A DNA stretch of 64,000 bases from an uncultured Bacteroidales bacterium. Its GTDB lineage: Bacteria > Bacteroidota > Bacteroidia > Bacteroidales > FEN-979. The translations under genes and the position numbers were made by a program. Below are positions 28,597 to 55,024 of this stretch, piece by piece (within the stretch, counting starts at the first letter, position 1; the number at the start of each line of letters is the position of its first letter). Where the stretch lies: NCBI GenBank assembly GCA_903887775.1, contig CAISRB010000011.1:259664-323663 (forward strand), given 5' to 3'. The notes under the pieces were generated by a model. The model saw only the letters and a list, made by a program, of their open reading frames with translations, was not told the origin of the DNA and did no database searches.

Positions 28597-28600
28597 TCAG

Positions 28601-33042: not shown

Positions 33043-33043
33043 G

Positions 33044-34372
33044 CTATTGGATGGCCAGCGAATCGATGACATCGCTGAGTTCTTTCGGGCGATATGGCTT
33101 TGCAAGATATTCATCCATACCTGCTGACAGGCATTTTTCACGGTCAGTCATGATAACATGGGCTGTCACTGCAATAATTTTAACCGGAGGTTTGGCACTG
33201 GCAGGATCTTTTTTCATCTGCTCTTTCTCATAATTCCGGATCACATGGGTCGATTCTATCCCATCCATTATCGGCATTGCAATATCCATGATTATCAGGT
33301 CATATTGCGTTTCGCGAAATTTCTCAAATGCGATTTTTCCGTTTTCCGCGATTTCAACGTGGTGGCCTGACCTGCCCAGGGTAGTGGCTGCAAATTTCTG
33401 GTTAAGGATGTTATCCTCTACCAATAAAATGTTCAAAGGCCTGCTCTTCTTTATTACCTTTTGTTCCTGCTTGATGTTATTCCTGAATGCTTCTATATCG
33501 CCAACCGCATACAATAAAGTGAACCAGAAAGTCGAGCCGCTGTCTTTTTTACTGATCACTCCGATTTTACCATTCATCAGATCTATAAGATTCTTTGAGA
33601 TCGACAAACCCAGTCCGGTGCCTTCAAATTGTTTTATCAGGGGACTATCCAGCTGTGCATATTCCTTGAACAGATTTGGTTGTTCTTCTTCAGGAATTCC
33701 CACTCCGGTATCACTTACTTCAAATTTCAAGAGTACATGCCCCGGAGGAAGGCTTTGCATGGTCAGGATACTATCAGGTAAATATTCGGTAAGTCTGAGG
33801 TCATCAAGCCGGCTGGCGTCAAGGATCTCGACTGAAACTACTACAGATCCCTCAATGGTAAATTTCAATGCATTGTTTGTAAGGTTTACAAGGATCTGAT
33901 GCAAACGGACAGCATCACCGATTATACATTCCGGTACTGACGATTGTATCCTGTATGAAAGTTCTACACCTTTGCCTTTTGCCCTGAGAAATAACATCTT
34001 GATTATCTGGTGAATTTCTTCATGGAGCAGAAATGGCTTGCTTTCGAGTTTCAGCTGCCCGGCTTTGATCTTTGAGAAATCAAGAATATCATTTATTATC
34101 GCAAGCAGATTATGACTGGATATATTAATTACTTCAAGAAGTTCGCGCTGTTCCGGGCTGAGGTTGGTCTGGTCAAGGATATTGTAAATCCCGATAATAC
34201 TATTCATCGGGGTCCTGATTTCATGGCTCATATTGGCCAGAAATATTGTTTTCGTGCGTTCCGCATCGTAAGCTATTATCCTGGCTTTATCGAGATCTTT
34301 TAAAGCCCGGGTGTATTTGTTTTCAAGTTCCGTAATCTGGGACTCCAATTCCTGAATCTTCAACTCTTTCAT
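33044..34372 (-). CDS. Soluble hybrid sensor histidine kinase / response regulator (coiled coil-DHp-CA-REC)
   Basis: 442 aa. Intact H-box FLANMSHEIRTPMNSIIG; N box NLTNNALKFT; G boxes DTGVGI and GTGLGLSI. Receiver with IIMDIAMPIMDG and LAKPY. No TM or sensor domain seen. Confidence 0.9.
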   Translation of the reverse strand: MKELKIQELESQITELENKYTRALKDLDKARIIAYDAERTKTIFLANMSHEIRTPMNSIIGIYNILDQTNLSPEQRELLEVINISSHNLLAIINDILDFSKIKAGQLKLESKPFLLHEEIHQIIKMLFLRAKGKGVELSYRIQSSVPECIIGDAVRLHQILVNLTNNALKFTIEGSVVVSVEILDASRLDDLRLTEYLPDSILTMQSLPPGHVLLKFEVSDTGVGIPEEEQPNLFKEYAQLDSPLIKQFEGTGLGLSISKNLIDLMNGKIGVISKKDSGSTFWFTLLYAVGDIEAFRNNIKQEQKVIKKSRPLNILLVEDNILNQKFAATTLGRSGHHVEIAENGKIAFEKFRETQYDLIIMDIAMPIMDGIESTHVIRNYEKEQMKKDPASAKPPVKIIAVTAHVIMTDREKCLSAGMDEYLAKPYRPKELSDVIDSLAIQ

Positions 34373-34376
34373 AAAA

Positions 34377-35792
34377 TCAATACTTATTCAGCTGGTTTTT
34401 CATAATTGAATATAATTGCTGCTGGTTGATCGGTTTCGAAATATAATCGTCAAACCCCGCTTCCAGAAGGGTCTCACGGTCTCCTGCCATAGCATAAGCA
34501 GTTTGCGCAATAAAGGGCACTGACCTGTATTGCTTCCATTTTTTTCTGATCTCCTGCATCAGCTTTATCCCGTCCCAGGGAGGAGGGAGGTTGATATCGA
34601 AGAGCATGATATCGAAAAACTTGTCTGCGGCGGCTTTCTCATTGATGATCTTCAGGGTCTCGTCCCCGTTAACAGCTGCAACAACACGGCCCATCGCCTT
34701 CGTCATTTCAGTCAGAACGAGCTTGTTCATCATATCGTCTTCAACAATAAAAATATCAAGGTCGTGAAGGCCTTTTGCTTTTTTCTTTACTTCCTGAGGA
34801 GGATGCGCTGATTCTTCCACAACTGCGACAGAAGCGCGTATATAGAGTGTAACCGTAGTCCCGATTCCTCTTTCAGAATTGATCTCAAGCGATCCCTCCA
34901 TCATTTCGAGCAGACTTTTTGCAAGAGGAAGACCTAATCCGGAACCTTTCCCTTCTTTTGAAAATCCTGTAGTATCGCTTTTGAATGGAGCCAGTAGTTC
35001 AGGTAAAAACGCGGGGTCAATTCCAACCCCTGTATCTTTGATCCTGATGGATATCAGATGGGAATCTTTATTGTAATCCGTCGAAATATTGATAAAGCCC
35101 TGCTCGGTGAACTTTATTGAATTATCCAGAACGATACTCAAAGCTTTCGAGAATCCTGTTTCATCAGCCAAACCTTCAGGAACCTCACCTGGTTTGAAAT
35201 TCAATTTCAGTTTTTTCTTATTTGCCTGAAAGAGATATACCTGTATCGTGTTAGCGACGATCACATTCAAAGCGCAGGGTACAGGTTTCAAAGTAAAGTC
35301 ATTCGACTCAACCCTGCTGATATCTATGATGTTATTTAAAAGATGGAGCAGTCTGTCACCGCTTTCGAGTACCGCATGGGCATAGTCGAAAAGTTCCTTA
35401 TTTTCCAGAACAGAAAGCTCAGCCTCAAGCAGGCTCGCAAAACCGATGATGTTATTTAAAGGGGTTCGGATCTCGGAACTCACATTGGAAAGAAAAGAGT
35501 TCAGAAGGAAATTGGCATCTTCAGCTTTTTTTAATGCTTTTTTCAACATGATATCCCGATCCCGTTTCTCTTCATATTCCTCTTTTATAGCCATCATCCG
35601 GGTATTCACCTGCTTATCTACCTGCTGTTCATACTCTCTGATCTTTTCAGAGGCTTTGCTCAGTTCTTCTTCTTTCTCTTTCAGCAATATGATGTGTTTT
35701 GATGTATGTTGTCTGAATCTCAGAAATAAAAATGATGACAGGATCATCAGTAACAGTATCATCAAAATAAGGAAAACGCTCAGAGTAGTCAT
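34377..35792 (-). CDS. Membrane-anchored hybrid histidine-kinase-like protein with Ser in place of the phospho-accepting His
   Basis: Start set at MTTLSVFLILMILLL (35792), just after the stop of the upstream gene. The H-box reads FLSNVSSEIRTPLNNIIG (codon TCC at 35475-35477). The N/G boxes (VLDNSIKFT, DTGVGID, GSGLGLPLA) and the receiver (MLFDINLP, ISKPI) are intact. Confidence 0.85.
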   Translation of the reverse strand: MTTLSVFLILMILLLMILSSFLFLRFRQHTSKHIILLKEKEEELSKASEKIREYEQQVDKQVNTRMMAIKEEYEEKRDRDIMLKKALKKAEDANFLLNSFLSNVSSEIRTPLNNIIGFASLLEAELSVLENKELFDYAHAVLESGDRLLHLLNNIIDISRVESNDFTLKPVPCALNVIVANTIQVYLFQANKKKLKLNFKPGEVPEGLADETGFSKALSIVLDNSIKFTEQGFINISTDYNKDSHLISIRIKDTGVGIDPAFLPELLAPFKSDTTGFSKEGKGSGLGLPLAKSLLEMMEGSLEINSERGIGTTVTLYIRASVAVVEESAHPPQEVKKKAKGLHDLDIFIVEDDMMNKLVLTEMTKAMGRVVAAVNGDETLKIINEKAAADKFFDIMLFDINLPPPWDGIKLMQEIRKKWKQYRSVPFIAQTAYAMAGDRETLLEAGFDDYISKPINQQQLYSIMKNQLNKY

Positions 35793-35800
35793 ACCGGGAG

Positions 35801-36607
35801 TTATTTGTAAGCAATAAACAGATCTTCCAGTGGATTGATCGCAAATCTGTCCAGTTCCAAAGGCCAATTGTCTTTATAAGGGTTAAAACGTTTCACAACA
35901 AAACCACTGTACTCTAACCTGCCGGGGTAATCCTGTCCATAAATCCGGACATGATCAAACTGGCCGTATATTTTTTCCCTTTCTTCAGCTGTTGTCACTG
36001 AAGGATCTTCAAATGTCTTTTCAAGTATTCCGGAGATAGGAACCTGCAAAATTGCCCAGCCGCCTGGTTTAAGCACCCGGTAAAGTTCACTGATTGCTTT
36101 ATGATCGTCAGGAATATGCTCCAGGACGTGATTACAAATAACCACATCAAATGTGTTATCTTCAAACTCCAGTTTAGTGATATCAAGTACAGCGGTATTT
36201 TTATCATAATAAAATCCCTGATGATATTTCATCCCGGCCTCGTATGTAATGTTTGGAAGTTTCGAAAGCATTGCCCTGATACATCCTTCCGGAGCAATAT
36301 GAAAAACTTTAAGAGGTCCGCTGAAAATATTCGTTTTATGGCTAAGGAACAAATATATCAGCCTGTCCCTGTCCAAAGAATAACAGCGTGGACAAACATC
36401 ATTAAGCCTGTATCCTGCACCTATTATTTGCTTCTCATAAATCACCGGTAAATCAATGCCACCGGGACGGAACTTGCGGAAGGAATGATTGCAAAACGGG
36501 CAGGTATAAGCATCACCTTTGTGAATGAGAGCTGATAATTTCTGATAAATACCCCTTAATTTTGCAGCTAACCAGTAGGGGATCAGGTTTTTGAATGGAA
36601 AATTCAT
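35801..36607 (-). CDS. Class I SAM-dependent methyltransferase with an N-terminal Cys4 zinc-ribbon-like motif
   Basis: 268 aa. CPFCNHSF...CPRC, then FDVVICNHVLEHIPDDHKAISELYRVLKPGGWAILQVP (Methyltransf_11-like). Confidence 0.8.
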   Translation of the reverse strand: MNFPFKNLIPYWLAAKLRGIYQKLSALIHKGDAYTCPFCNHSFRKFRPGGIDLPVIYEKQIIGAGYRLNDVCPRCYSLDRDRLIYLFLSHKTNIFSGPLKVFHIAPEGCIRAMLSKLPNITYEAGMKYHQGFYYDKNTAVLDITKLEFEDNTFDVVICNHVLEHIPDDHKAISELYRVLKPGGWAILQVPISGILEKTFEDPSVTTAEEREKIYGQFDHVRIYGQDYPGRLEYSGFVVKRFNPYKDNWPLELDRFAINPLEDLFIAYK

Positions 36608-36610
36608 CGT

Positions 36611-38272
36611 TTATTTTTTTATTAAATCATTTCCTGATTGAAGAATGGGTATCTTTCGTGATACCGTATAAGCCTCAAACCGGAAAATACAAATATAGCA
36701 TGCTTCAGGAAGAGGGCCTAAATATTTTTCTATTTCTGTTTGCCCTGGCCCTTCTGCTGAATTGCTTATCGTTGCAATCTGAATGCCAAGCATTGAATAA
36801 AGGTCAATGTTAAGAACATTCCTTGCAGCCAGGTTTAAAGAGATCTTCAAATTCCCGTCTTTAAAAAGAATTTTAGTGATCAGCAAATCGCCGGTATTTG
36901 ATTTTTCAGGTATTTCAAGCAGTGAGGAGTCATGGCATTCATATGCGCCTATATCATATTTAACAGGCCATGGCCTGGTCCTTCCGGCAATATCTGAGTT
37001 TAATGAAAATCCGTCTATGGCTGAGCCTGTATTTACAGCGGGGGAGGAGGGCTGAAGGTCATATTTATCTTTGCCCGGATCAATGAATTTAACATCGCTG
37101 GTATCAGGAACCAACAAATTATCCTGCTGTGCGAGGGTTGTCCCTGCTGCTGTTTTAATATAGGATCCCCCGGGGTTAGCTATAATATTATCATATGCAA
37201 TACTATTTACGGCTGATGAGCTTCTGAAATCAATACCGTTTGTCAGGGGCGAAACGATAGTGTTAAATACCAGGTGATAACCTCTTCCTTCTGCAGGAGA
37301 TTGGGTGCCAATGAATATGCCGTGTTTCTGACCTGAGCCGGAAAAACTGTTACCCGGATTAACGATCAGGTTATTATAAATATAATTCCCTCCCTGTCCG
37401 AGTTCATCTATACCATCGCCTTTCCCCTCCTTAATAAAGTTTGAAAAACAATTGCAGGAAGACCCTCCTCCAAGTAGAAAACCGCTCATTTGCCCACTGA
37501 CTTCCGCCTGGCTGTCGTGAAAAATAGTATTATTATTAGTATAGCAGGCTGAGTCGGCGCAGGAAACCTGAATCCCGTCCCATCCGGTATTTTCGACCCT
37601 GTTATTGTAAACATTCAGGCCCCTGATAAAATGAGGGTAAACTACTGTGTCTTTTTGATCGCAGTGCAACGTATAACCGTAATAATAGGAATGCCCGATA
37701 TACATTCCTTCATTGGCAATTTCATGGAGGTAATTATCATGAATACTTATATTTCTCATAACAAAATTGTCCCTGGTCGACTTAAAGCTGCAATCAGGAT
37801 CTGTTTTGGCAACGATACCTGTCCAGCTTGCATTGTAAATCTCAACGCCTGCAAGCTCGATACACGTACTGAGCCCCCCTATACTCACACCGGCATTTGT
37901 CGTACTGATGATAAAACCATAGGTGTTACCTGAAGGATTTCCGATAACCCTGACCCATGAACAGGTATCAAACTTGATCCCATAACTGAAGTTACTGAAG
38001 CTCACCTGCCCCTGGTAATTCTGAACGAGAATAGGGTTTGATTCAGTCCCATGAAGGTTTCTGAGGATCAGGAACTGCCGGGAGGAGGCCGAAAGATAAA
38101 TAGTATCTCCTGGTTTCACCGCGGAGGCATTATTCCGGCCGTCAATAACCGATTTATCCGGCCCGAAAATAAATTGACTGGCCAATCCGGTAAACGGCAA
38201 CAGCAAGAGCCATGTCGTGGCCATCAGATATATATTGAAAATCCTTTTTCTCATAATCGGATTCATGATCAT
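36611..38272 (-). CDS. Secreted right-handed parallel beta-helix repeat protein (candidate glycan lyase/hydrolase/epimerase), possibly with a degenerate T9SS CTD
   Basis: 553 aa. Signal peptide. Repeated N..I.N/hydrophobic-G beta-helix rungs and a DIGAYE motif. The last ~90 aa loosely resemble a Por sorting domain. Confidence 0.65.
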   Translation of the reverse strand: MIMNPIMRKRIFNIYLMATTWLLLLPFTGLASQFIFGPDKSVIDGRNNASAVKPGDTIYLSASSRQFLILRNLHGTESNPILVQNYQGQVSFSNFSYGIKFDTCSWVRVIGNPSGNTYGFIISTTNAGVSIGGLSTCIELAGVEIYNASWTGIVAKTDPDCSFKSTRDNFVMRNISIHDNYLHEIANEGMYIGHSYYYGYTLHCDQKDTVVYPHFIRGLNVYNNRVENTGWDGIQVSCADSACYTNNNTIFHDSQAEVSGQMSGFLLGGGSSCNCFSNFIKEGKGDGIDELGQGGNYIYNNLIVNPGNSFSGSGQKHGIFIGTQSPAEGRGYHLVFNTIVSPLTNGIDFRSSSAVNSIAYDNIIANPGGSYIKTAAGTTLAQQDNLLVPDTSDVKFIDPGKDKYDLQPSSPAVNTGSAIDGFSLNSDIAGRTRPWPVKYDIGAYECHDSSLLEIPEKSNTGDLLITKILFKDGNLKISLNLAARNVLNIDLYSMLGIQIATISNSAEGPGQTEIEKYLGPLPEACYICIFRFEAYTVSRKIPILQSGNDLIKK

Positions 38273-39450
38273 CAGCTTCTTTTTGCTCTTTCCCAGTTTA
38301 CTGACTGTTGTTTCCTGATATACCTGGCAAATCCAAGGTAAACAGCAAGATTCATAATGAAAAAGTAATATGGTACAAAAAAGATCTTCAATTTGATTTT
38401 TCTCTCTTCAAGAAACCAGCCGAACAAAGCCACCATATAAAAGAGTATCTGACCCCAGAAAAGCCAGATGTATATATTCCGGAAATTGAAAAATCCCGCT
38501 TCAGCGGCAACAATTCCTGAACAAACCAGCATAATCAGTAAACCAAGAGGGGCCAGCGTCCATCGAAGCACGCGGTGTGAAATGTACTGGAATGAAAGCA
38601 GTCCGAATTTAAACGGATTAAGCAGTTCCTTCAGCCTGATCACCGACTGTATGCCTCCGGCAGAAATACGGATTTTTCGTTTCAGCTCCTCCCTTACACT
38701 GACTGATGGGTTCTCAATTGCATAGGCTTCAGGATCATACTGAATGGTATATCCCTGTTCAGCAATTCTTAAGGATATAATAAAATCATCAAGCAGGGTA
38801 TCAGGTTCAACAGGTCTGAACAGCTCCGTTCTTAGGGCAAACAGTTCTCCTGCTGCGCCGACAACTGAATATAGTTCAGCATCCCATCTTTTCAGCGTCG
38901 ATTCATATTTCCAGTATATCCCTTCTGTGGCGGCGACGGAATCCTTATTAAATATCCTTTTCTCACCAGACACACAACCAACTTTCAAATCGCTGAAAAG
39001 CGCGACAATCCTTCGTATTGATTCTTTTCCGAGCAGGGTGTTCCCATCTGAAAAGATTGCTATCGGTGTTTTTACAAACTGCATTCCTCTGTTCATTGCT
39101 GCAATCTTTCCTGCCCGAAGAGGCTGGTGATAGACTTCGATCCCTTCATATTCTTTTAATAGCTCGGGAGTCCCGTCGTCAGAACCGTCGGTAACCCATA
39201 CATGCCTGACTTTTTCTTTTGGATAATCAAGGGAGAGCGAATTTCTGATTTTAGCATCAATAAAATCCTTTTCATTATATGCTGTTACGAACAGCGTAAC
39301 TTCAGGTTCAAAGCCTTTCACTTCGAGCTTCTTTTTCTTCCCTGACAAGCGTTTTAACCGGATCAAAATGAACAGGAGTATCCCATATCCAAGGTAAGCA
39401 TAGAAGATTATGATGAAAAATATCCAGATAATAATTTTTAAGGCCAGCAT
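38272..39450 (-). CDS. Family 2 glycosyltransferase with flanking TM helices
   Basis: 392 aa. VTLFVTAYNE, FSDGNT (DxD-like). TM segments at both ends. The QxxRW position reads KRKIRISAG, so it is degenerate. Its stop overlaps the next start (TGATG at 38270-38274). Confidence 0.8.
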   Translation of the reverse strand: MLALKIIIWIFFIIIFYAYLGYGILLFILIRLKRLSGKKKKLEVKGFEPEVTLFVTAYNEKDFIDAKIRNSLSLDYPKEKVRHVWVTDGSDDGTPELLKEYEGIEVYHQPLRAGKIAAMNRGMQFVKTPIAIFSDGNTLLGKESIRRIVALFSDLKVGCVSGEKRIFNKDSVAATEGIYWKYESTLKRWDAELYSVVGAAGELFALRTELFRPVEPDTLLDDFIISLRIAEQGYTIQYDPEAYAIENPSVSVREELKRKIRISAGGIQSVIRLKELLNPFKFGLLSFQYISHRVLRWTLAPLGLLIMLVCSGIVAAEAGFFNFRNIYIWLFWGQILFYMVALFGWFLEERKIKLKIFFVPYYFFIMNLAVYLGFARYIRKQQSVNWERAKRS

Positions 39451-39473
39451 AAGAAGTATTTTACGATGAACAA

Positions 39474-41303: not shown

Positions 41304-41311
41304 AATTAATA

Positions 41312-42457
41312 TTAATGAGTTTGGCTGGTTTCAATTTCTTTATAAATAGAAAGTACTTTCTCTGCCATGGCTTTCCATGAAAATTTCAATGCATTCTTAA
41401 ACCCTTTGTTAATCAGGTCTGATCTCAGGGATTCATCCCTGAGAAGTTTTTTCATGGCTTCGGTGATCTGCTCAGGTTTAAAGGGATCAATATATAATGC
41501 AGCATCACTGCCAACCTCAGGCATAGAAGATGTGTTTGATGTTATCACAGGAACACCGCAAGACATAGCTTCCAGCATAGGTATCCCGAAGCTTTCCCTT
41601 AGCGAAGGATACAGAAATATTATACAAAGGGAGTAGATGCCTGGTAATTCAGTATTTGGGACATACCCGGTAAGGGTAATATAATTAATGAGCGCCGGAT
41701 CGCCTGTTTCGTTAATCAATTTTGAAAGTTCCTTAATGTCGTAGTCCAGCATAACCAAATGAAGTTTTTCATCCATTTGTTTATTGAACAAAGAAAGAGC
41801 CTGAAGAACACCAATCGTATTCTTTTTAGGGTCTGTATTCCCGAAAAAGAATACAAACCTGTCGGGCAGATTATACTTAATTTTCAGGCCCGACAATTCG
41901 ACCGGGTCCGTTACCGGTTTAAAATGATCGCTCACCCCGTTGTAAACCGCGGAAAGCTTATGCTCATCAATGTGAAAGAAATCTGCAATACGCTGTTTCT
42001 CAAATTCCGATACAGTTATCAGCTTTTTGCATTTTCTGACGACCCTGGGAACAACCATTCTGCGGTACATATTCCCGAATTTCTGATAATTTGAAAACCC
42101 TTTCCCGAAAATACTCAGGCTTTCCATATAAATAATATCATGAAGGGTAACTACCAGGGGAATTGATGTAAAAACAGGGGCCGTATTGCTGGTACAATGC
42201 AGCAGGTCACAACCGGCCTTTCTTGCGGCAGAAGGAAGTGTTTTCTGCTCCCACAAAGGGTATGGCCGGCTTTCGAGTTCGATTACATGGAAGTTCCCCT
42301 CAGATGCAAGACAGGGAGATTCTCCTTTTTTAACAAAAATAAAATACTCATTGCTGTGATCAATCGCCCGAAGATTATTCACCAGTTCGAGAGCGACCAT
42401 ATCCATGCCATGTTTCTTCTTGCGGAATAGCCTTTGACCTTCAATCCCGATACGCAT
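41312..42457 (-). CDS. Family 4 (GT-B, group 1) glycosyltransferase
   Basis: 381 aa. C-terminal LYPSLRESFGIPMLEAMSCGVPVITSNTSSMPEV (E-x7-E region). Confidence 0.85.
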   Translation of the reverse strand: MRIGIEGQRLFRKKKHGMDMVALELVNNLRAIDHSNEYFIFVKKGESPCLASEGNFHVIELESRPYPLWEQKTLPSAARKAGCDLLHCTSNTAPVFTSIPLVVTLHDIIYMESLSIFGKGFSNYQKFGNMYRRMVVPRVVRKCKKLITVSEFEKQRIADFFHIDEHKLSAVYNGVSDHFKPVTDPVELSGLKIKYNLPDRFVFFFGNTDPKKNTIGVLQALSLFNKQMDEKLHLVMLDYDIKELSKLINETGDPALINYITLTGYVPNTELPGIYSLCIIFLYPSLRESFGIPMLEAMSCGVPVITSNTSSMPEVGSDAALYIDPFKPEQITEAMKKLLRDESLRSDLINKGFKNALKFSWKAMAEKVLSIYKEIETSQTH

Positions 42458-42465
42458 TTTCCGGT

Positions 42466-43653: not shown

Positions 43654-43672
43654 GTCTCTGTGTTAATACGAT

Positions 43673-44863: not shown

Positions 44864-44898
44864 ATCTGCCGTTCGTCTTTATCTGCTGCGTATCATTG

Positions 44899-44906
44899 CA
44901 AATATA
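44899..44906 (-). promoter_or_regulatory. Possible internal promoter, -7 box TATATTTG, with a TTTG 19 nt upstream
   Basis: It lies in the only sizeable gap (71 nt) inside the glycan locus and uses the same octamer as the box at 55017-55024. Confidence 0.35.
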
Positions 44907-44934
44907 GTCAAAGATGCTCCAAATTCAAAATTGA

Positions 44935-45858: not shown

Positions 45859-45859
45859 T

Positions 45860-46780
45860 TCAATTTAATTTAGGGTTGACATGAAGAGCCCGGTTGAATG
45901 TATTCTTAACATGCCACCCAATGGCATTTTTATATGCTCTCAGCAAAGAAAACTGGCCTTTTAACAAAAACATCAGGGCATTTTTTGGTATGGCAATAAA
46001 TGACTGGTATATAAAAGCCGGGAGAAATGCAAGCCCATGTACATTTCTGCGCATGTATAAAATGCGGTTACGGTTAAGATAATAGATCTTAAGCGGACTC
46101 AGTGAGCCTGTGGTGATTGAATCTTTATGATAAACAACCGAGTTATGGACATATCCGATTTTATAACCTGCATCCTTGATCCTTTGGATCCAGTCCATTT
46201 CCTCATAATAGAGAAAGAAAATATCGGCCATCAGGCCGACCTGCTTCATAACTGAAACAGGAATCATCATGGCAGCGCCGAAAGCATATTCAGTGAAGTA
46301 GTCCCGGTCATACTGACCAGTATCAATTTCCTGAAATCCGATTCCTCTGTTTCTTGCTGTGAGTAGATGGATGGATGTAAACCCTGCATATTGAATAAGC
46401 TCAGGATGATGGAAATAACGAATCTTCGGGCTTACAACTCCCAATTCGGGATTCTCTTCAAGTTTCTTTACGAGGGGTTCTAAAAAACCCGGTTCGACCT
46501 CAGTATCATTATTAATCAGCAAATGATATTTCCCTTTCGCCGCAAAGATTCCAAGATTATTGCCACCTGCAAATCCGAGGTTTTTGTTGCTTTGGATAAA
46601 TGTAATATCGGGATGTTTTTCTTTGATGATAAGTGGATTGCGGGTGGGGGAGGCATTGTCGACCACGATGACCTCAAAATGCGGGTACGAGATTTTCTTT
46701 ATTGAATCGAGAAAAGCTATCGTTACTTCAGGCTGGTCATAATTCACAGTGATAACAGATACAAGAGGTAGTGGATCCAT
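45860..46780 (-). CDS. Soluble family 2 glycosyltransferase (paralog)
   Basis: 306 aa. VSVITVNYDQ, GFAGGNNLG, LLINNDT, FFLYYEEMDW. Confidence 0.85.
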   Translation of the reverse strand: MDPLPLVSVITVNYDQPEVTIAFLDSIKKISYPHFEVIVVDNASPTRNPLIIKEKHPDITFIQSNKNLGFAGGNNLGIFAAKGKYHLLINNDTEVEPGFLEPLVKKLEENPELGVVSPKIRYFHHPELIQYAGFTSIHLLTARNRGIGFQEIDTGQYDRDYFTEYAFGAAMMIPVSVMKQVGLMADIFFLYYEEMDWIQRIKDAGYKIGYVHNSVVYHKDSITTGSLSPLKIYYLNRNRILYMRRNVHGLAFLPAFIYQSFIAIPKNALMFLLKGQFSLLRAYKNAIGWHVKNTFNRALHVNPKLN

Positions 46781-46789
46781 ATTTAATCA

Positions 46790-46957
46790 TTAATCAGAAG
46801 ATGTTTCGTTCCTGTTTTCCCCGTGAGTAATTTCTTTCATTTGCTGTTCTTCCCGTTCCAGCTTCTGATCCCGTTGATCCTGTACAAAACCGGCAATAAA
46901 GCCAACAGGGATAAAAAGAACCATACCAATAAGTATATGTACAATAATTCCAGTCAT
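46790..46957 (-). CDS. Small (55-aa) single-TM protein, absent from the ORF track (below its size cutoff)
   Basis: My translation: MTGIIVHILIGMVLFIPVGFIAGFVQDQRDQKLEREEQQMKEITHGENRNETSSD. It starts 5 nt after the Wzy-like stop, ends 10 nt before the next start, and fills the gap exactly. Confidence 0.4.
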   Translation of the reverse strand: MTGIIVHILIGMVLFIPVGFIAGFVQDQRDQKLEREEQQMKEITHGENRNETSSD

Positions 46958-46961
46958 GGTT

Positions 46962-48452
46962 TTATACTATAATTTCCGGATCAGCTGTTACAATAAGATT
47001 CTTGCGGCTCAGGATCATTTTATCTAAGTAAGGCCCCATAAATACATATGCCATACTGGTATATACAACAAGCCCGGTGGGGAATTGCCCGAGGACTGCG
47101 TTACCATAACTGGCACCAAGTATACCAAAGATCCCGCAGTGGAGTGCCGCGATCTTGATCTGAAGGTCCGGGTCCCTGATCCGGAACATGCATATATACA
47201 GTCCTTTACCAACTATATAACCCAGAATGAAGAGATGCAGGTATAATCCCAGAATACCAGCTTCAGCCCATATCAGCACAAACCAGCTGTCGGTTGCAAC
47301 ACTTGAAAGAAAGGTGTTGCCTGTATATGCTAAAGCATGGCCACCTGCATGGCCAATTCCTCCACCAAATGGCCTGGTTTTCAAATATTCTTCGAAAATA
47401 GCCTGGTTCTTTAACCTTACCTGAAAGGATGCATCATCTTCCGGGGTAAATGCTGATCTCATTCGAAAAATCTGGTAACTGCTGTTCCCAATAGTCGTAT
47501 ACCTGAAAAAGCTGTAGACAAAGGTCAGCAGTATCAATCCCACAACAATGACCCGGACATTTTTCCTTATGATAACATATAAAGCAAGACCTGCAAAAGG
47601 CACGAAGATAGCGCCCCGCGTCCCGGAAGATGACATACCATAATACCCGGCAATCATGCATAACAACCAGAAAATACGCTGTTTAAACCGTTTCTCATAA
47701 AAGACCATGATCGTTGCGACAAGTCCGATCTGGCCCTGTGCCGCTCCAAACTGACCAGCATCGGTATAGAATGAAAAAGCCCTGAGGTTACCCCAAAGGA
47801 TATGTGTAACCGCACCTACTTCATCCAGCCATTTTTGCTCCCAGGGGTCGGGGCCTATATTCAATTGCATCCAGGCTTTAACAGAAGCCAGGATAGACAG
47901 GATTCCCCATATTTTCAGGAATTTGTCAAGGTGTTTCGGGTCATTATAAAGTAATTGAACAAGAGGAACAGCCAGTACCATATAAAAACCAATACCGCGC
48001 ATCGATGCAAACCAGGCTGTTTTGCTGATTGCCTCCGGATTAAAAAACTCAGCAAGAATATAAATAAACCAGATGGCCGACAGGTAAGTAAGATCATTAT
48101 TAACCGGGGTAAGGTCCAGTTTTTTATTAAAATAATGAAAGAATAAGGCAATATATATAGAAATCAGCAAAATATCCATGACATACCCCAATTTGATTGG
48201 AAGGTACCTCGTGAGTCCCATGATGATGAAATTCAGTATCAGGGCAATGGTATATCCTTTAGATGGATCCTGGATCAACTTGTAGAAAGCAAAAAAGAGT
48301 AAGGGAACAGTGATCACGATAGCTGCAACGATCAATCCGGCCTGGGCGATAGCATACCCTATAGCAATCGTGCCAACGAGAATAGTCCCGATGGCCAGCG
48401 GATTTCGCAATTGATCGGATCCTGTCGGAATATTAAAAGGATTCCCCATCAT
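46962..48452 (-). CDS. O-antigen ligase / polymerase (Wzy-like) family membrane protein
   Basis: 496 aa with about 10-12 predicted TM helices and a large loop containing GTRGAI...R..F (Wzy_C-like). Lies next to the flippase. Confidence 0.7.
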   Translation of the reverse strand: MMGNPFNIPTGSDQLRNPLAIGTILVGTIAIGYAIAQAGLIVAAIVITVPLLFFAFYKLIQDPSKGYTIALILNFIIMGLTRYLPIKLGYVMDILLISIYIALFFHYFNKKLDLTPVNNDLTYLSAIWFIYILAEFFNPEAISKTAWFASMRGIGFYMVLAVPLVQLLYNDPKHLDKFLKIWGILSILASVKAWMQLNIGPDPWEQKWLDEVGAVTHILWGNLRAFSFYTDAGQFGAAQGQIGLVATIMVFYEKRFKQRIFWLLCMIAGYYGMSSSGTRGAIFVPFAGLALYVIIRKNVRVIVVGLILLTFVYSFFRYTTIGNSSYQIFRMRSAFTPEDDASFQVRLKNQAIFEEYLKTRPFGGGIGHAGGHALAYTGNTFLSSVATDSWFVLIWAEAGILGLYLHLFILGYIVGKGLYICMFRIRDPDLQIKIAALHCGIFGILGASYGNAVLGQFPTGLVVYTSMAYVFMGPYLDKMILSRKNLIVTADPEIIV

Positions 48453-48459
48453 TTATCGG

Positions 48460-49851
48460 TCAAAACTTTTTTTGCCTTATTCGTATCAACAATCCCTTGT
48501 AGAAGTCAATCCCCTCAGAGAAAATTTTCGTAAACGAGATATCTATTTCCTTTTTCAGGAAATAATATCCTATGAAAAGTCCGATAAATGCAAAAATTAT
48601 AGAAGCAAGTGCAACGAAAAGCAATATTGTAGTGACTGACCAGGAAGGGAAAAAATGATGAAGGCCAAAAACGGCGAAGATATCTCCCAGAATGTTGGCA
48701 GTTGTCATGACGACTACTTTTTGAAAGTTTTTATCGGGCCGGTTCAAACTGTCCAGGGCTACGCCGGTAAACCGGTCCAAAGGAAGAAGAACACAATAAA
48801 TAATAAAAGAGATAAGTACAAATGAGATACCGGGATATAATGTGAGATACTTATGACCACCCATGATCAGAATAAAATAGTTGTGAAAGACAAGGCTGAT
48901 GATTGCAATAAAAAAGAAAAGAAACACCAGAGGTCCTGTATATGCATAATATATTCGTTTGAATTCTTCCCTGTTGCCTTCCATACTTGCCTTTGATAAT
49001 TTAGGGAAGGCAGTTGTTGCGAAACTCAGTAAAGGGATCTCGACCAGTTCAATGTATTTCAGCGGAATAGCGTACAAAGCTACACCCAGGGGGCCAAGAA
49101 AAGCGCTGAAGGAAATGATGAAGCTGTCAGCACCTTTTAAAAGGCTTGTACCAATCCTTGTTGCCATTGAGTACCTGCCATATTTAAGGATCTCAATCAC
49201 TTTTACTTTACTTACGCGCCTGATATACTGAAGCCCGGCCCATTTTTTAATTATACAAAATATTGAGGTTGCCAGGTTAGTTGCTATATAAAGGAAAACA
49301 ACCGTCTTGACATCAATTTTAATATATAAATATGCAACAAAAAGGATCACAAGGAAAGAGCAGAGGTTAAAGAACCTGATCCAGAATATTTTCCCAAAAT
49401 CAACTTCGGCCTGGAAAATTGACCAGGCATAATTCCATGGAAGCGTAACAAGGCCGAGCAAAGGGTACCAGATAAAGAAAAGTGAATAACCACTTGCACG
49501 CAATGGCTGAGGAATCGTTAACGCCAGAGTCCATAAGATAATTGTTATTCCTGCCAGGATCACCAGGCCCACGACCCATGCAGATCCCAGGTAATATTTT
49601 TTATCTTCCGAGGTACTCCCCGAAAGATATCTGACAAGCGCTTCTTTTGTAATTCCAAAACGAAGCATATCAATGAGAGACGATGGGGTGGTAAATAATA
49701 CCCAGACACCAAAATCAGGAATGGACAGCATCCTGAGCAGAATCATATAAGAAAACAAACTGGCAAGAGCAGTGGTCAGATTGCCTGCTAAGGAAAGAAA
49801 ATTGGCATCTTTAAGGATATTAACTATCGTTCGTTTTATTCCTGCCCACAT
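48460..49851 (-). CDS. Oligosaccharide flippase (Wzx, MOP superfamily)
   Basis: 463 aa, polytopic. N-terminal NFLSLAGNLTTALASLFSYMILLRML pattern typical of polysaccharide biosynthesis (Wzx) proteins. Confidence 0.8.
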   Translation of the reverse strand: MWAGIKRTIVNILKDANFLSLAGNLTTALASLFSYMILLRMLSIPDFGVWVLFTTPSSLIDMLRFGITKEALVRYLSGSTSEDKKYYLGSAWVVGLVILAGITIILWTLALTIPQPLRASGYSLFFIWYPLLGLVTLPWNYAWSIFQAEVDFGKIFWIRFFNLCSFLVILFVAYLYIKIDVKTVVFLYIATNLATSIFCIIKKWAGLQYIRRVSKVKVIEILKYGRYSMATRIGTSLLKGADSFIISFSAFLGPLGVALYAIPLKYIELVEIPLLSFATTAFPKLSKASMEGNREEFKRIYYAYTGPLVFLFFFIAIISLVFHNYFILIMGGHKYLTLYPGISFVLISFIIYCVLLPLDRFTGVALDSLNRPDKNFQKVVVMTTANILGDIFAVFGLHHFFPSWSVTTILLFVALASIIFAFIGLFIGYYFLKKEIDISFTKIFSEGIDFYKGLLIRIRQKKF

Positions 49852-49874
49852 GATAATACTCTTATGACGCCATG

Positions 49875-52565
49875 CTAAGAAATGACATTGTCCTCACGAA
49901 ATCTGAAAGTCAAAATTTTCTTGACAGTACGGCGAAATTTGGATCTTTGTTTTGGAATTTCCCCGAAAACTGAATCAAGAAACATCAATTCAACTCCGTT
50001 AAGAACAATCTGTGTAGGCTCTTTTGATAAGGACAGAAATCCATTTAAAGCTGTTTTATCAGCATCAGTCCAGGAACGGTTTGCTCTGACCACCAGCAAT
50101 GTATAATCAGACTTCTTGATAAGATCTATAGGATATGCGTTATTGATCAATGAAGGGATCTCAATAAAGATATAATCACAGGTTTCAATGTCGATATGTT
50201 CATATCCTTTAAGCAGATCCATCGTATCCTTTGTTTCAAAAAAGTTATCCTGGATAATATACTGCAGCTCGTCATCAGTAGGCGGGATCAGTTCTCCGCC
50301 AGGGAAATCTTCAGTAGGAGTGGCATTTTCTTTTAAGTAATTCAGGAACAGGGCATTTTCGCCAAAGGATCTGAACTTTCTAGTTAATTCCCTGCCAATT
50401 GTAGTCTTTCCTTCCGAATCCCGCGTACTTATAAAAAGAATGACTGCAGGTTTCTTTTCTGTACCGTCCAGGTTTTTATGTATGTTTAACTTAATATTCT
50501 GGGCAATTATTTCGACAAGCCTTGGCAGGATAAATCCGATATCCACGTTATATATTTGCTTTACGATCTTAGGATAAACTCCTGCAAGTTTAAGTTTGAT
50601 AAACCGCTCGGCTCTTTCAGGTGTTTTAATCGTGGTATCGAAAAATTCCATTGCAAGAAGGATGATAACAACCAGCAAAAATCCGAGCAAGGCAGCGGCA
50701 AGCACAAGCAACATAACTTTTGATCTTAATGGATGTAAAGGATAAAATGGTGAATCCACAATTTTCAGGTTTGTTGATAATTCATCATCCTGCTGCCTGA
50801 GTTTCGCGAGGTTCAAATCATGCAGCAGCTCAAGAAACTCACTTTCCGTAACACCGATCAGTCGTTCAAAACGTTTCTGCTGGGCTCCTAATGGTGCAAA
50901 AATTTCATAGACCTTCTGGAAATATATTTTGCGCGCTGAAAGGACTCTCAGTGCTGCTTTACTTTCTTCGTATGCCACAACATTAGTCAGCCAGGCGTTC
51001 AGCAGATCTTTTAAAGGAAGTCCTTCAACGGAATTAGTCACAAGGTACAGCTGGTCCAGGTTGTCCTTTAATGCCGCCTTGATCGATTCGACTTTCCCTT
51101 TTAAAACTGCAAGCGTTTCAATTGTAGCCGAATCATTTCCAAGATCGATCTCAAGATTGGCAATCTGCATGGTTGTGTTCGTCAGCTCATTTCTCAATCT
51201 CAGGATAGAGCTCGTATTGAGGGAAAGCTTCGCATGATTTTCAAGTTTTTTCTCAATAATTTTAATTGCGGCATCTGAAGATGCAAGGGCAATCTGTTTA
51301 TTCTGGAATTCAACATCAAGTTCTTCTTTTGTCGTAGCTATTACTTTAGTCTGCTCATAAAAGTTGATGATGTTGTTTTTTGAGTTAAAAACCAGCAGAG
51401 CCGATTCGGCTTTCTGAAGCCTTCCCATTGCATTGTCAAGCTCTCGCCTGAAATACGCAATAACAGCATCGGTCTGATTCTGCTTCAGTAATTTATATGA
51501 ACGTATGAATCCTTTAATGAGAAAAACAAGGGTTTGCTGTGCAATCCCGGGATCTGAAGTCTTATAAGACAATTTCAGCAGGTCACTACTCTGTATTCTT
51601 GTTATTTCTATAGTTGACAGGGCATTAAGGCTGTAAAAAGGGTCAGAAGTAGAATTCCACAGCTGATATATAAAATTGTAGTCATTCTGATGGCCATAAT
51701 TGATAAGCCGTTTGACCAGTTTGTCAAAAGCGGATGTATCGCCGATAGCATTGCGGATGGCAACTGTGCCGGTAGCTGTATCAAATTGGGAGTAAAAATC
51801 TGAAGGGAGCGAAGTTGAGTCCACAAGTCTCTCAGAGCCGGCAGTTCTGACAGGAGCCGGCTCAATGTTACCTGTTTCAGTCGGATATGCAGCAGGCTCA
51901 GGTACTTGTTCCGCTGCAGAGATTTTGAGTTTTTGCCCTGTAGAAATATGATTTGATCTCAGCCTGTTATAGCTCATCAGTTCACTAACAGTCATTCCAT
52001 AGGAACGTGCGATAGAGAACATGGTTTCACCCGGGGCGACTACATGGAATGATCTCCTTGAAGAAGGTGCCACATAAGCTGTTTTCTCCGAATTGATGCG
52101 GGAATCAGGCGAATTGAGTGAGGTGTCGGAGAAAGAAGTCCTTCTACCCGGGGATTTAAAAAATTTAGGGTTGGCATGTTTGGCTTTTCTGACAATATCC
52201 ATTACGTCAGGTGGAACTCTTGCAATAAGATCGTCCCAGTGTTCTTTTGATATATACCGGTCATCGTAATTATCAAGAAGAAGGTGTTGTGCAAGGAGGG
52301 AAGCCGAAACTTCTTCGAGGGTCTGACGGGAGCGGATCAGGTTTATCAGGTTATCATAGATTGTCGTTTTGAGCATGATATCAGAGAACGCTTGTTGCTG
52401 CACCGAATATCCCGATGTGACTCCTGTATAGATTGTTGCCTCCGAGACATAACTCCATTGATTCTTCCTTGTCAGGAAGAACACAATAGCTGCCAAAAGC
52501 AAGGGGACAAGTATCAGGAGTAACACATGGCGCTGCAGAATCTTGACAAAGTAGATAATCTTCAT
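49875..52565 (-). CDS. Polysaccharide co-polymerase / BY-kinase-like protein (Wzc/GumC type) with an embedded LysM domain
   Basis: 896 aa. TM1 plus a Wzz-like start. LysM FHVVAPGETMFSIARSYGMTVSELMSYNRLRSNHISTGQKLKI (aa ~173-216, nt 51918-52049). Long coiled-coil periplasmic region, then TM2. C-terminal P-loop domain ISTRDSEGKTT...YIFIEIPSL...LLVVRANRS. No C-terminal Tyr cluster. Confidence 0.75.
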   Translation of the reverse strand: MKIIYFVKILQRHVLLLILVPLLLAAIVFFLTRKNQWSYVSEATIYTGVTSGYSVQQQAFSDIMLKTTIYDNLINLIRSRQTLEEVSASLLAQHLLLDNYDDRYISKEHWDDLIARVPPDVMDIVRKAKHANPKFFKSPGRRTSFSDTSLNSPDSRINSEKTAYVAPSSRRSFHVVAPGETMFSIARSYGMTVSELMSYNRLRSNHISTGQKLKISAAEQVPEPAAYPTETGNIEPAPVRTAGSERLVDSTSLPSDFYSQFDTATGTVAIRNAIGDTSAFDKLVKRLINYGHQNDYNFIYQLWNSTSDPFYSLNALSTIEITRIQSSDLLKLSYKTSDPGIAQQTLVFLIKGFIRSYKLLKQNQTDAVIAYFRRELDNAMGRLQKAESALLVFNSKNNIINFYEQTKVIATTKEELDVEFQNKQIALASSDAAIKIIEKKLENHAKLSLNTSSILRLRNELTNTTMQIANLEIDLGNDSATIETLAVLKGKVESIKAALKDNLDQLYLVTNSVEGLPLKDLLNAWLTNVVAYEESKAALRVLSARKIYFQKVYEIFAPLGAQQKRFERLIGVTESEFLELLHDLNLAKLRQQDDELSTNLKIVDSPFYPLHPLRSKVMLLVLAAALLGFLLVVIILLAMEFFDTTIKTPERAERFIKLKLAGVYPKIVKQIYNVDIGFILPRLVEIIAQNIKLNIHKNLDGTEKKPAVILFISTRDSEGKTTIGRELTRKFRSFGENALFLNYLKENATPTEDFPGGELIPPTDDELQYIIQDNFFETKDTMDLLKGYEHIDIETCDYIFIEIPSLINNAYPIDLIKKSDYTLLVVRANRSWTDADKTALNGFLSLSKEPTQIVLNGVELMFLDSVFGEIPKQRSKFRRTVKKILTFRFREDNVIS

Positions 52566-53356
52566 TATTCTATTTTGTTGATTACGTTGAACTTAAATCC
52601 GCATAGCTCCTGAAGAATCATATAGGAGTTATAAAAAGCATTTCTTGATGTTTCGTAATTGTAAATGGCAACACGGTACATTTCCATAATATAAGCCAGG
52701 TCATACAAAGTATTCTGACCGTTTATAAATTCCTTATCGCCCATTTCCTTGTTCATTGCGCCGGCGATCACACTCTCGTTTGCATTTTTCAGAATTTTCT
52801 GATTGACGCTTAATTGATTATACTGGGTGATTATTTGCTGTCTCAGTTCAACGATCTGGTTTTCCTTCTGGGCCATTGACTTTTCAATTTCCTTCGTTGC
52901 CGTTTTGACCTGATTCTTTCTGTCCCAGAGATCTTCCATGGGGAGCCTGAGGCTTACACCGGCTATACCCCTGTAATTATTCTGGTTTGACCATTGGGGA
53001 TTCCAGTTTATTTTATCAGAGGAATTGTCGGTATAGGAATTCCAGAAATCATTCTGAATACTGGCATCAATGTAGAAGTTTCTCATCCAGAAACGGCTTG
53101 CTGTTTTGACTTTGTACCTCCATTCGGCAATGTCGGCATCATAATACTTTAATAAAGGTGCGTGGACGATGGCCGAATCGATAAGGTCTGAAAGCGGCGG
53201 AATGCGCTGTGTGATATCTTCGATGAGCGGGTTGAAATAGTATGTGGTATCTTTCTGCTGGCCAGAACACAGTAAGGGTGTTCCAAACACACAGATAAAC
53301 ACAAGGTTAAAAAACCAGTGTTTTCCTGTGAGTTCATAAGTGGCCAGAATTTTCAT
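52565..53356 (-). CDS. Secreted half-length TolC/OEP-like protein
   Basis: 263 aa. Signal peptide. LSDLIDSAIVHAPLLKYYDADIAEWRYKVKTA resembles the start of one OEP repeat, followed by a strand region and long helical heptads. Only one repeat is present. Its stop overlaps the PCP start. Confidence 0.45.
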   Translation of the reverse strand: MKILATYELTGKHWFFNLVFICVFGTPLLCSGQQKDTTYYFNPLIEDITQRIPPLSDLIDSAIVHAPLLKYYDADIAEWRYKVKTASRFWMRNFYIDASIQNDFWNSYTDNSSDKINWNPQWSNQNNYRGIAGVSLRLPMEDLWDRKNQVKTATKEIEKSMAQKENQIVELRQQIITQYNQLSVNQKILKNANESVIAGAMNKEMGDKEFINGQNTLYDLAYIMEMYRVAIYNYETSRNAFYNSYMILQELCGFKFNVINKIE

Positions 53357-54589: not shown

Positions 54590-54594
54590 CGGTC

Positions 54595-54996
54595 TTACTG
54601 ACTGTTTTTGCTGCCTGAGAAGGCTACGGATGTTTCAATCCGGCGTTTAACTCGTACTATCAGTTCCCTGGGATTAAATGGTTTTACAACGTAATCATCA
54701 GCTCCCATTTCAAAACATTTGATCTTATCAGCGCTTTCCTCTTTTCCCGACAGCATAACCAATGGGATTTCATCAAAAAATCCACTTTCACGAATGCGTT
54801 TGATAAACTCGAACCCGTTCATAACCGGCATTTCCACATCACAGATAATGACATCCGGCAGGTTTCCCGACTGGATATAGTATAAAGCATCCATCCCGTT
54901 ACTCAGGGTTGTCACTTCAAACTCCTTGTTAAAGGTATTTTCTATGATAAACCGGATACTCTTTTCATCGTCTATTGCGAGTATCTTTCTTTTCAT
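54595..54996 (-). CDS. Stand-alone response-regulator receiver (CheY-like), first gene of the glycan locus
   Basis: 133 aa. ILAIDDE, DVIICDVEMPVMNG, LVMLSG, DDYVVKPF: all canonical phospho-site residues are present. No output domain. Confidence 0.9.
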   Translation of the reverse strand: MKRKILAIDDEKSIRFIIENTFNKEFEVTTLSNGMDALYYIQSGNLPDVIICDVEMPVMNGFEFIKRIRESGFFDEIPLVMLSGKEESADKIKCFEMGADDYVVKPFNPRELIVRVKRRIETSVAFSGSKNSQ

Positions 54997-55016: not shown

Positions 55017-55024
55017 CAAATATA
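55017..55024 (-). promoter_or_regulatory. -7 box TATATTTG upstream of the receiver gene / glycan locus
   Basis: The reverse complement of caaatata matches TAnnTTTG, 20 nt upstream of the ATG at 54996. Confidence 0.45.

Follow-up and report, generated by a model that had tools for sequence, protein, structure and literature searches.

A stand-alone receiver and a pseudo-receiver phosphoglycosyl transferase head a putative Wzx/Wzy-dependent polysaccharide locus conserved across Bacteroidota

Introduction

What do two-component signalling proteins control when their genes lie in a glycan assembly locus without any DNA-binding output? This question is raised by a gene run of about 22 kb in a stretch of DNA from an uncultured Bacteroidales bacterium (GenBank assembly GCA_903887775.1, contig CAISRB010000011.1), the 64,000 nucleotides of which are called the window throughout this paper. 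The run begins with the genes of a stand-alone receiver and of a receiver-like domain fused to a phosphoglycosyl transferase (PGT), and it ends with two hybrid kinase genes. We consider it reasonably probable that this locus specifies a pathway of the Wzx/Wzy-dependent type for a surface polysaccharide or exopolysaccharide (EPS) which occurs phylum-wide in Bacteroidota, with initiation gated by a phosphorelay and export through a half-size TolC-like protein.

The run comprises 18 minus-strand open reading frames (ORFs), which follow each other without interruption from position 54996 to position 33044. An earlier note, made from the letters of this DNA, had described a co-directional run between these positions. 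This description held, but its count of about twenty genes was slightly too high. As the note had also stated, the genes are tightly packed: the intergenic spacing varies between -1 and 23 nt with a single exception of 71 nt (44864-44934), and at 38272 and 52565 the stop codon of one gene overlaps the start codon of the next. Domain assignment with Pfam and NCBIfam on the ORFs of the window reproduced the domain order of the note and every one of its domain calls, that of the Wzx-type flippase via orthologs only. Its statement that the locus lacks Wza, a histidine phosphotransfer (Hpt) domain and a DNA-binding output was borne out as well. Poly_export/Wza (PF02563) and Hpt are absent from every ORF of the locus and of the 64-kb window according to Pfam and NCBIfam, and a receiver-linked DNA-binding domain was found neither in the locus nor in the rest of the window.

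Results

Conservation of the receiver and transferase genes

The two genes that open the locus encode the following proteins:

54595..54996, minus strand: stand-alone receiver (REC), 133 aa; Pfam Response_reg, 99 bits
53357..54589, minus strand: pseudo-receiver fused to a small monotopic PglC-type PGT, 410 aa; Bac_transf, 198 bits, and a partial Response_reg match, 34.8 bits

One genome per species was scanned, which yielded 80 loci, and the ORFs of these loci were compared with the proteins of the window. The loci stem from Bacteroidales, Lentimicrobiaceae, Marinilabiliales, Flavobacteriales, Chitinophagales, Sphingobacteriales and Cytophagales, and cultured strains are included. Adjacency of the receiver gene was counted over the 78 loci that have upstream sequence, and adjacency of the gene for the TolC-like protein (Pfam OEP) over 75 loci. 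Here, we found that the position directly upstream of the fusion gene is taken, in 77 of the 78 loci, by a gene for a receiver of about 125 aa, and the position directly downstream, in 69 of the 75, by a short, single-repeat OEP gene (about 250 aa). The OEP gene is followed in 64 loci by the gene of a polysaccharide co-polymerase (PCP), after which usually come genes for Wzx, Wzy and family 2 glycosyltransferases (GT2). This core order (receiver, pseudo-receiver-PGT, short OEP, PCP, Wzx, Wzy) recurs in Bacteroidales, Marinilabiliales, Flavobacteriales, Chitinophagales and others, and one relative carries the six-gene core alone. The fusion protein itself has more than 100 full-length relatives in metagenomes, down to 53% identity, as well as well over 100 clusters at 50% identity in which length and architecture are the same.

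The distal part of the locus is also found elsewhere. An order of glycosyltransferases, a beta-helix protein with a tail for the type IX secretion system (T9SS), a methyltransferase and two kinases recurs on the contig of locus L001 and in a second genome. In these two relatives, which keep the whole 22-kb layout, the kinases at the far end are 57% and 51% identical to those of the window. The earlier note had left room for an accidental neighbourhood of signalling and glycan genes. We reject this explanation on the basis of the 77 of 78 adjacency; the two sets of genes are co-conserved, and paired kinases stand at the far end in relatives.

Residues and fold of the two receiver domains

In the stand-alone receiver the catalytic residues D9, D10, D53, S83 and K105 are invariant in 77-78 of the 78 orthologs. 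Judged by this full catalytic set, the protein can be phosphorylated. The domain fused to the transferase is different. In the window it carries Gly-Lys instead of Asp-Asp and Glu76 instead of the acceptor Asp. Over the 78 loci its first acidic position is Gly in 69, the acceptor position is occupied by Glu in 56, by Asp in 12 and by another residue in 10, and the Lys is kept in merely 17. Conserved positions of this domain are G14, D71, G121, D124, R138 and K146. By its residues, which fail those of a functional receiver, the fused domain is a pseudo-receiver. Since the catalytic residues are invariant in the one protein and lost in the other, the constant unit of the system appears to be a phosphorylatable receiver plus a non-phosphorylatable pseudo-receiver that is tethered to the priming enzyme. 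The earlier note had named the priming transferase as the only visible output attached to a receiver fold. The fusion was confirmed, but the idea that the fused receiver is itself the phosphorylated element had to be rejected, since its phospho-acceptor pocket is degenerate.

An AlphaFold (AF2) model of the fusion protein, calculated with 48 homologs (mean pLDDT 74), consists of a (beta/alpha)5 receiver fold at residues 8-148, a long single re-entrant helix at residues 169-201 and a subsequent PglC-like catalytic domain. In Foldseek the model matched Campylobacter PglC (E = 1e-10, TM-score 0.79), and the fused receiver domain matched the receivers of PhoP and PmrA (TM-score about 0.8). Thus, the receiver-like assignment of the earlier note, and likewise its TolC-like assignment (fold matches to the TolC family only, see below), were confirmed both by hidden Markov models and by fold.

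Relative to the Pfam Bac_transf model, the catalytic domain of the PGT contains an insertion of about 57 residues (residues 246-290 approximately) with C253, C256, C265 and C277 in a CxxC...C...C arrangement. These four cysteines do not vary among close relatives, and 63 of the 78 species loci have them. The insertion resembles a zinc ribbon; the confidence of the model is low in this region.

Components of the export apparatus

Directly downstream of the fusion gene, two genes encode the presumed export components:

52565..53356, minus strand: half-size TolC-like outer-membrane protein, 263 aa, one OEP repeat; Pfam OEP, 43.6 bits; candidate exit channel
49875..52565, minus strand: PCP-2-like co-polymerase, 896 aa; LysM, 53 bits; weak Wzz/GNVR matches; P-loop; two transmembrane segments

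The AF2 model of the 263-aa protein (pLDDT 80) contains, besides a signal helix and two short helices, a beta-hairpin of two strands and two very long helices. Its 39 top fold matches in the PDB were all TolC, OprM, CusC or VceC structures, each of which aligned along roughly half of its length (about 215 of about 430 residues). The helices are about 100 angstrom long and the two strands are amphipathic, as is typical for TolC, and as far as the model goes 'half-TolC' is an accurate description of this protein. TolC carries two repeats and forms a trimeric 12-strand barrel. The present protein has one repeat in about 230 mature residues, and therefore a trimer would be unable to close the barrel. 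A Gln (Q33) stands right after the site at which the signal peptide is predicted to be cleaved, and it does not vary across 40 orthologs. This agrees with the 'Q-rule' for substrates of signal peptidase I in Bacteroidota, and the invariant Gln supports the predicted export of the protein. As in the window, a Poly_export gene is absent from six annotated relatives.

The PCP of 896 aa carries its LysM insertion in the periplasmic part, and its P-loop domain, which resembles that of bacterial tyrosine kinases (BY-kinases), is cytoplasmic. A profile of the family matched PslE (7e-11), Wzc (1e-8) and CapA/CapB (1e-6). Its Walker A motif reads STRDSEGKT in the window and T(Q/R)xxEGK(T/S) in most orthologs. 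A Tyr cluster of the BY-kinase type was not seen, as the last 25 residues contain 0-1 Tyr in most orthologs and 3 at maximum, and a Wzc-style autophosphorylation cycle is therefore not expected. The LysM domain was considered as a defining feature of the system and rejected, since it occurs in 25 of 64 PCP orthologs and is confined to the Bacteroidales-type clade. The PCP ends with a conserved basic tail, for example PKKRSxxRKKLKxxFxFQFFSKNQI in Flavobacteriales; in the window this tail reads KQRSKFRRTVKKILTFRFRE.

Kinases and the phosphotransfer route

The far end of the locus is formed by two kinase genes:

34377..35792, minus strand: membrane-anchored hybrid kinase-like protein, HisKA-HATPase-REC (Pfam), phospho-His replaced by Ser; ExxT kept, receiver intact
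33044..34372, minus strand: soluble hybrid histidine kinase without a sensor domain, His and receiver intact; HisKA, 71 bits, HATPase, 81 bits, REC, 83 bits

The listed start of the former gene (ORF 34377-35867) is a TTG which overlaps the methyltransferase gene. Met26 (35792) is the likelier start, because it leaves an 8-nt gap to the methyltransferase gene and falls at the transmembrane helix. The H-box of this protein reads NVSSEIRTP and thus lacks the phospho-His, whereas that of the second kinase (NMSHEIRTP) contains it. The receivers of both kinases carry the acidic pair, the acceptor Asp, the Ser/Thr and the Lys. In loci L085 and L086 the intact kinase also adjoins its His-less paralog.

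We compared 120 orthologs of the His-less kinase (P0270-P0389). Ser replaces His in all members that are at least 69% identical. In a clade of 55-62% identity His is present, with sporadic Ala or Gln, and in a clade at about 50% identity Ser is found again. The EIRTPLNNII motif, the ATPase domain and the receiver are intact throughout. By this distribution the phospho-His was replaced at least twice independently (by Ser in two clades and sporadically by Ala or Gln in a third). Such repeated and maintained loss argues for a role that is independent of autophosphorylation. Because ExxT, the phosphatase motif of HisKA proteins, is retained, we favour a function beside the intact kinase, as its phosphatase partner or as one that tunes the flux. 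A decaying pseudogene was considered and rejected, as the substitution is fixed across many clusters and the H-box and all domains are intact.

Both kinases are hybrid proteins and phosphoryl transfer to the stand-alone receiver would call for an Hpt domain. When the window was searched in six frames with an Hpt profile built from relatives, nothing was found (best E = 1.6). In at least 10 other loci, however, an Hpt gene (111-127 aa where checked) lies directly before the receiver gene, and Pfam confirmed the assignment for 6 of 8 tested. These loci are of the Flavobacteriales type (L038, L050, L055, L056, L067, L072, L074, L076, L081 and L083; the Hpt gene at about 9.1-9.9 kb in most). One locus encodes a REC-Hpt protein divergently from the receiver gene. 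Hpt-like ORFs of 105 aa lie 2-4 kb upstream in other loci, and the two that were tested (L049, L060) were not confirmed by Pfam. The string of Hpt, receiver and transferase genes is as expected of a multistep phosphorelay that ends at the stand-alone receiver and thus supports this reading of the gene order.

The signalling inputs vary between lineages while the receiver and transferase pair stays constant. In other lineages the genes beside the receiver encode a 402-aa hybrid kinase, PAS kinases, large multidomain kinases, LytTR proteins or sigma54 NtrC-type regulators. The absence of an Hpt and of a DNA-binding regulator is thus true of this locus, as the earlier note had it, but by comparison of the loci it is a lineage trait and not a trait of the system, because other lineages place an Hpt, a REC-Hpt protein, or a sigma54 NtrC-type or LytTR regulator beside the module. 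An unlinked Hpt is likely in this organism and would be the simplest expectation. Transcriptional control may operate alongside the gating.

Comparison with characterised systems

The closest characterised analogue is found in Myxococcus xanthus, where the phosphorylated receiver EpsW binds to EpsZ, a PGT of the large monotopic class, and activates it post-translationally, probably via dimerisation (Schwabe et al., mBio 2025, PMC12802240). Both systems are Wzx/Wzy-dependent EPS loci with two-component genes, and each encodes a stand-alone receiver together with the priming PGT; post-translational control of initiation by the phospho-receiver, which was shown in Myxococcus, is predicted here. 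The two belong to different phyla and differ in several parts. EpsZ is a large monotopic, WbaP-like enzyme, whereas the present transferase is of the small PglC type with a fused pseudo-receiver and so does not belong to the large PGTs that lack the dimerisation beta-hairpin. Myxococcus employs the CheA-like kinase DifE, whereas two hybrid HisKA kinases, one of them without His, are encoded here. Finally, the outer-membrane polysaccharide export (OPX) protein EpsY and the beta-barrel protein EpsX of Myxococcus contrast with a half-size TolC-like protein and no OPX protein in the present locus.

Fusions of small monotopic PGTs with receivers have been reported bioinformatically (O'Toole, Imperiali & Allen, PNAS 2021, as cited in PMC12802240). 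As described in the citing text, they combine a receiver with a PglC-type Bac_transf domain, which is the same fusion as here. Judged from that citing text, four traits appear to be undescribed: an obligate receiver as partner, the degeneration of the phospho-site, a neighbouring Hpt and the conserved pair of OEP and PCP for export. The citing paper also remarks that small monotopic PGTs are monomers, so that their regulation must differ from that of EpsZ (PMC12802240).

The export components invite two further comparisons. With the Wza-Wzc systems of E. coli K-12 and K30 the locus shares a PCP that combines two transmembrane segments with a helical domain in the periplasm and a P-loop domain in the cytoplasm and that is encoded beside its outer-membrane partner. 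In contrast to Wza-Wzc (group 1 capsule), there is no Wza/Poly_export protein here, the C-terminal Tyr cluster is replaced by a basic tail, and a LysM insertion is present in this clade. With TolC, OprM, CusC and VceC the half-TolC protein shares the Pfam OEP family and the fold (a beta-hairpin and long antiparallel helices). It differs from this family in that it carries one repeat instead of two and in that its partner is a PCP rather than a membrane-fusion protein and a pump.

A characterised Bacteroidota member of the system was not found in literature searches, and no characterised system of this architecture was found in the searchable literature, which agrees with what the first reading of this DNA had stated. 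The locus represents an uncharacterised variant of the Wzx/Wzy pathway that occurs throughout the phylum. We do not consider it categorically new, as both the fusion and the control of a PGT by a receiver have been described before.

Discussion

Proposed mechanism

In the mechanism that we propose, the small monotopic PglC-type transferase would prime undecaprenyl phosphate, and eight glycosyltransferase domains together with an acetyltransferase and a methyltransferase would assemble the repeat unit, as judged by the roles of these families. Wzx would flip the repeat unit and Wzy would polymerise it. The PCP, with its BY-kinase-like ATPase domain that lacks the Tyr cluster, would organise polymerisation and export, and half-TolC would stand in for Wza as outer-membrane conduit, probably as six protomers that rebuild a 12-strand, 12-helix TolC-like tube. 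The beta-helix enzyme, which is probably secreted by the T9SS, would process the polymer outside the cell.

On the signalling side, the intact soluble hybrid kinase would autophosphorylate, and the phosphoryl group would pass via an Hpt protein, presumably unlinked in this lineage and encoded directly upstream of the receiver gene in others, to the stand-alone receiver. The phosphorylated receiver would dock on the Glu-bearing pseudo-receiver of the transferase, most plausibly as a receiver-receiver heterodimer, and this docking would switch initiation on or off post-translationally. The membrane-anchored His-less paralog with its ExxT motif and receiver may tune the flux as phosphatase, phosphate sink or heterodimer partner. 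The anatomy of the locus and its co-conservation are read directly from the genomes. What we infer is that receiver and transferase interact, with which sign (activation or inhibition) they do so, and that half-TolC functions as a channel. Post-translational gating had been suggested by the earlier note for polymer initiation and for export. For initiation it is supported by the co-conservation and by the Myxococcus precedent, but for export we found no specific support.

Several points weigh against this proposal. Gating and docking of the receiver on the transferase are deduced from co-conservation for every member of the family. Both kinases are hybrid and an Hpt is absent from the window, so that the route to the stand-alone receiver is not evident here, and neither kinase has a recognisable sensor domain. 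The fused domain retains the acceptor Asp in 12 of 78 relatives and may thus be phosphorylated in some lineages. The half-TolC hexamer is hypothetical and derives from a monomer model, the AF2 confidence of which is low in the 103-129 loop, and in some Chitinophagales and Sphingobacteriales loci no OEP gene was detectable. The Wzy_C family also contains O-antigen ligases. Since small PGTs act as monomers (PMC12802240), the dimerisation mechanism of EpsZ is not simply transferable.

Alternative explanations

Control of the locus could also be mainly transcriptional. The stand-alone receiver would then be a relay or a sink, the DNA-binding output would be encoded elsewhere, and the fused domain would be a structural or dimerisation relic without a signalling role. 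Single-domain receivers are often sinks or connectors, the fused domain is degenerate, and sigma54 NtrC-type or LytTR regulators do lie beside the module in other lineages. However, these regulators are lineage-specific and absent from the window, whereas the receiver gene adjoins the transferase gene in 77 of 78 loci, no matter which kinase or regulator is encoded in the vicinity. Moreover, a relic would not be expected to persist phylum-wide with the conserved residues G14, D71, G121, D124, R138 and K146, and EpsW is a single-domain receiver that acts directly on a PGT (PMC12802240). We regard a mainly transcriptional control as unlikely. Still more improbable, in our judgement, is a scheme in which the pseudo-receiver docks a kinase (the His-less membrane protein or the intact one) in a DivL-DivK-like or scaffold arrangement and the stand-alone receiver competes for the site. 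Contacts between receivers and the dimerisation and histidine phosphotransfer domain are the canonical interaction of receivers, the His-less kinase is membrane-anchored like the transferase, and its maintenance without a phospho-acceptor suggests a binding or phosphatase role. Against this scheme stand the wide variation in kinase type and position, compared with the constancy of receiver and pseudo-receiver, and the His that the ortholog in the 55-62% identity clade retains.

As to the export step, the short TolC-like protein might be a periplasmic or outer-membrane accessory (e.g., an adaptor of the PCP), and the polymer might leave the cell via an unlinked Wza/OPX protein, a beta-barrel porin or the T9SS. 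A single TolC repeat that forms a channel has no characterised precedent in the literature found, half-TolC is known as a monomer model only, the OEP gene is missing in some relatives, and T9SS components and cargo flank the locus. On the other hand, the OEP gene lies immediately beside the PCP gene, the usual position of Wza, in at least 64 loci, and a Poly_export gene was found in none of the annotated relatives. The signal peptide with its invariant Gln after the cleavage site, the amphipathic strands and the TolC-type helices of about 100 angstrom also speak for a conduit, and an accessory role of the protein appears doubtful to us. A conduit made of half-TolC and a gated transferase could be combined into a stronger claim, namely a Bacteroidota-specific class of Wzx/Wzy systems in which a phosphorelay-driven receiver/pseudo-receiver switch acts on the PGT and a hexameric half-TolC on a Tyr-less PCP replaces Wza. 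We put this claim forward tentatively, as a possibility with somewhat less than an even chance.

Implications

The most surprising features of the locus are the obligate pair of receiver and pseudo-receiver, the half-size TolC in the place of Wza and the recurrent loss of the kinase His. Phospho-receiver control of the priming step has been shown once, in Myxococcus in 2025 (PMC12802240). Our data suggest that the same principle is hard-wired across Bacteroidota in a different form, with a pseudo-receiver and an obligate receiver, the gene of which often follows an Hpt gene. If a single-repeat TolC-like protein does replace Wza, this would be a new route for polymers across the outer membrane and would inform on the evolution of TolC channels; half-TolC would then be a surviving representative of the single-repeat ancestor to which the internal duplication of TolC points. 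The module occurs in cultured genera, some of them with established genetic tools (e.g., Flavobacterium, Polaribacter, Marinifilum, Flagellimonas), so that direct tests are possible. Surface glycans of Bacteroidota shape biofilms, the colonisation of marine particles and interactions with hosts, and knowledge of a shared switch for their production would thus be useful.

Polymer assembly genes, promoter boxes and surroundings of the locus

Between the PCP gene and the kinase genes the locus encodes the following proteins:

48460..49851, minus strand: divergent Wzx-type flippase, multiple transmembrane segments; no Pfam match itself, orthologs match Polysacc_synt
46962..48452, minus strand: Wzy-type polymerase; Wzy_C, 33.7 bits (cutoff 31.7); conserved position
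46790..46957, minus strand: 55-aa protein with a single transmembrane segment, after Wzy; tblastn matches at the same position in L001-L006 and L009, E down to 5e-10
45860-46780 and 44935-45858, minus strand: two soluble GT2 paralogs (Pfam), 53% identical (blastp)
43673-44863 and 42466-43653, minus strand: two membrane GT2 paralogs, 45% identical; Pfam/NCBIfam with a weak EpsU-like match; each with one N-terminal and three C-terminal transmembrane segments
41312..42457, minus strand: GT4 glycosyltransferase; Glycos_transf_1, 110 bits
39474..41303, minus strand: GT1-like glycosyltransferase fused to a hexapeptide acetyltransferase, 609 aa; Pfam/NCBIfam
38272..39450, minus strand: membrane GT2, weakly PgaC-like; Pfam/NCBIfam
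36611..38272, minus strand: secreted beta-helix protein; weak Beta_helix and choice-of-anchor Q matches
35801..36607, minus strand: S-adenosylmethionine-dependent methyltransferase; Methyltransf_11, 61 bits; kept in L085 and L086

The flippase call for 48460-49851 rests on orthology: 12 of 24 orthologs (37-62% identical) match Polysacc_synt, with E-values down to 5e-15, and 9 match Polysacc_synt_3. A profile of this Wzx-like family matched none of the solved structures. By its recurrence the 55-aa ORF encodes a genuine small membrane protein, and L087 has a 32-aa ORF at its position. In L085 (4445-6243) and L086 (3665-5498) the GT1-like protein and the acetyltransferase are encoded by two adjacent genes; the single ORF at 39474-41303 would thus be a lineage-specific gene fusion or the result of a lost stop codon. 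Orthologs of the beta-helix protein bear a Por_Secre_tail, which the C-terminus of the window protein matches at E = 0.12 only. By these matches it is probably a T9SS cargo and a candidate polymer-processing enzyme.

Two boxes of the Bacteroidota -7 type (TAnnTTTG) were noted:

55017..55024, minus strand: TATATTTG, read as the reverse complement, 20 nt upstream of the first ATG of the locus
44899..44906, minus strand: second exact copy of the box, in the sole long gap (71 nt); the membrane GT2 gene has its ATG 36 nt further on, at 44863

By its fit to the known promoter consensus of Bacteroidota, the former is the probable promoter of the operon. The latter may be an internal promoter that divides the run into two transcription units, or a chance match. 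A scan for sigma70 promoters and terminators gave numbers close to the shuffled expectation (63 vs 49 promoters, 21 vs 17 terminators); it is ill-suited to Bacteroidota promoters and was not used.

On one side the locus is flanked by a UvrB gene (55101-57137) and on the other by a convergent gene for a T9SS cargo protein (29545-33042, plus strand, 1165 aa, Por_Secre_tail), just past which lie a PorP/SprF gene and the gene of a PKD/CHU_C protein. The window was assigned to Bacteroidota on the basis of these T9SS-type genes. The stops of the last kinase gene (minus strand) and of the cargo gene (plus strand) are one base apart (33042-33044), and there is therefore no space for an intergenic terminator. 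L085 carries the same convergent gene pair. The type IX secretion cluster that adjoins the locus (27526-33042; PKD/CHU_C protein, PorP/SprF and 1165-aa protein) is syntenic in L085 for all three genes. An S8 peptidase with a Por_Secre_tail is encoded farther off (20923-22698). The genes at 1880-3151 (protein with a Schlafen/AlbA_2 domain) and at 19149-20729 (DUF4301 protein, 706 bits) have no connection with the locus.

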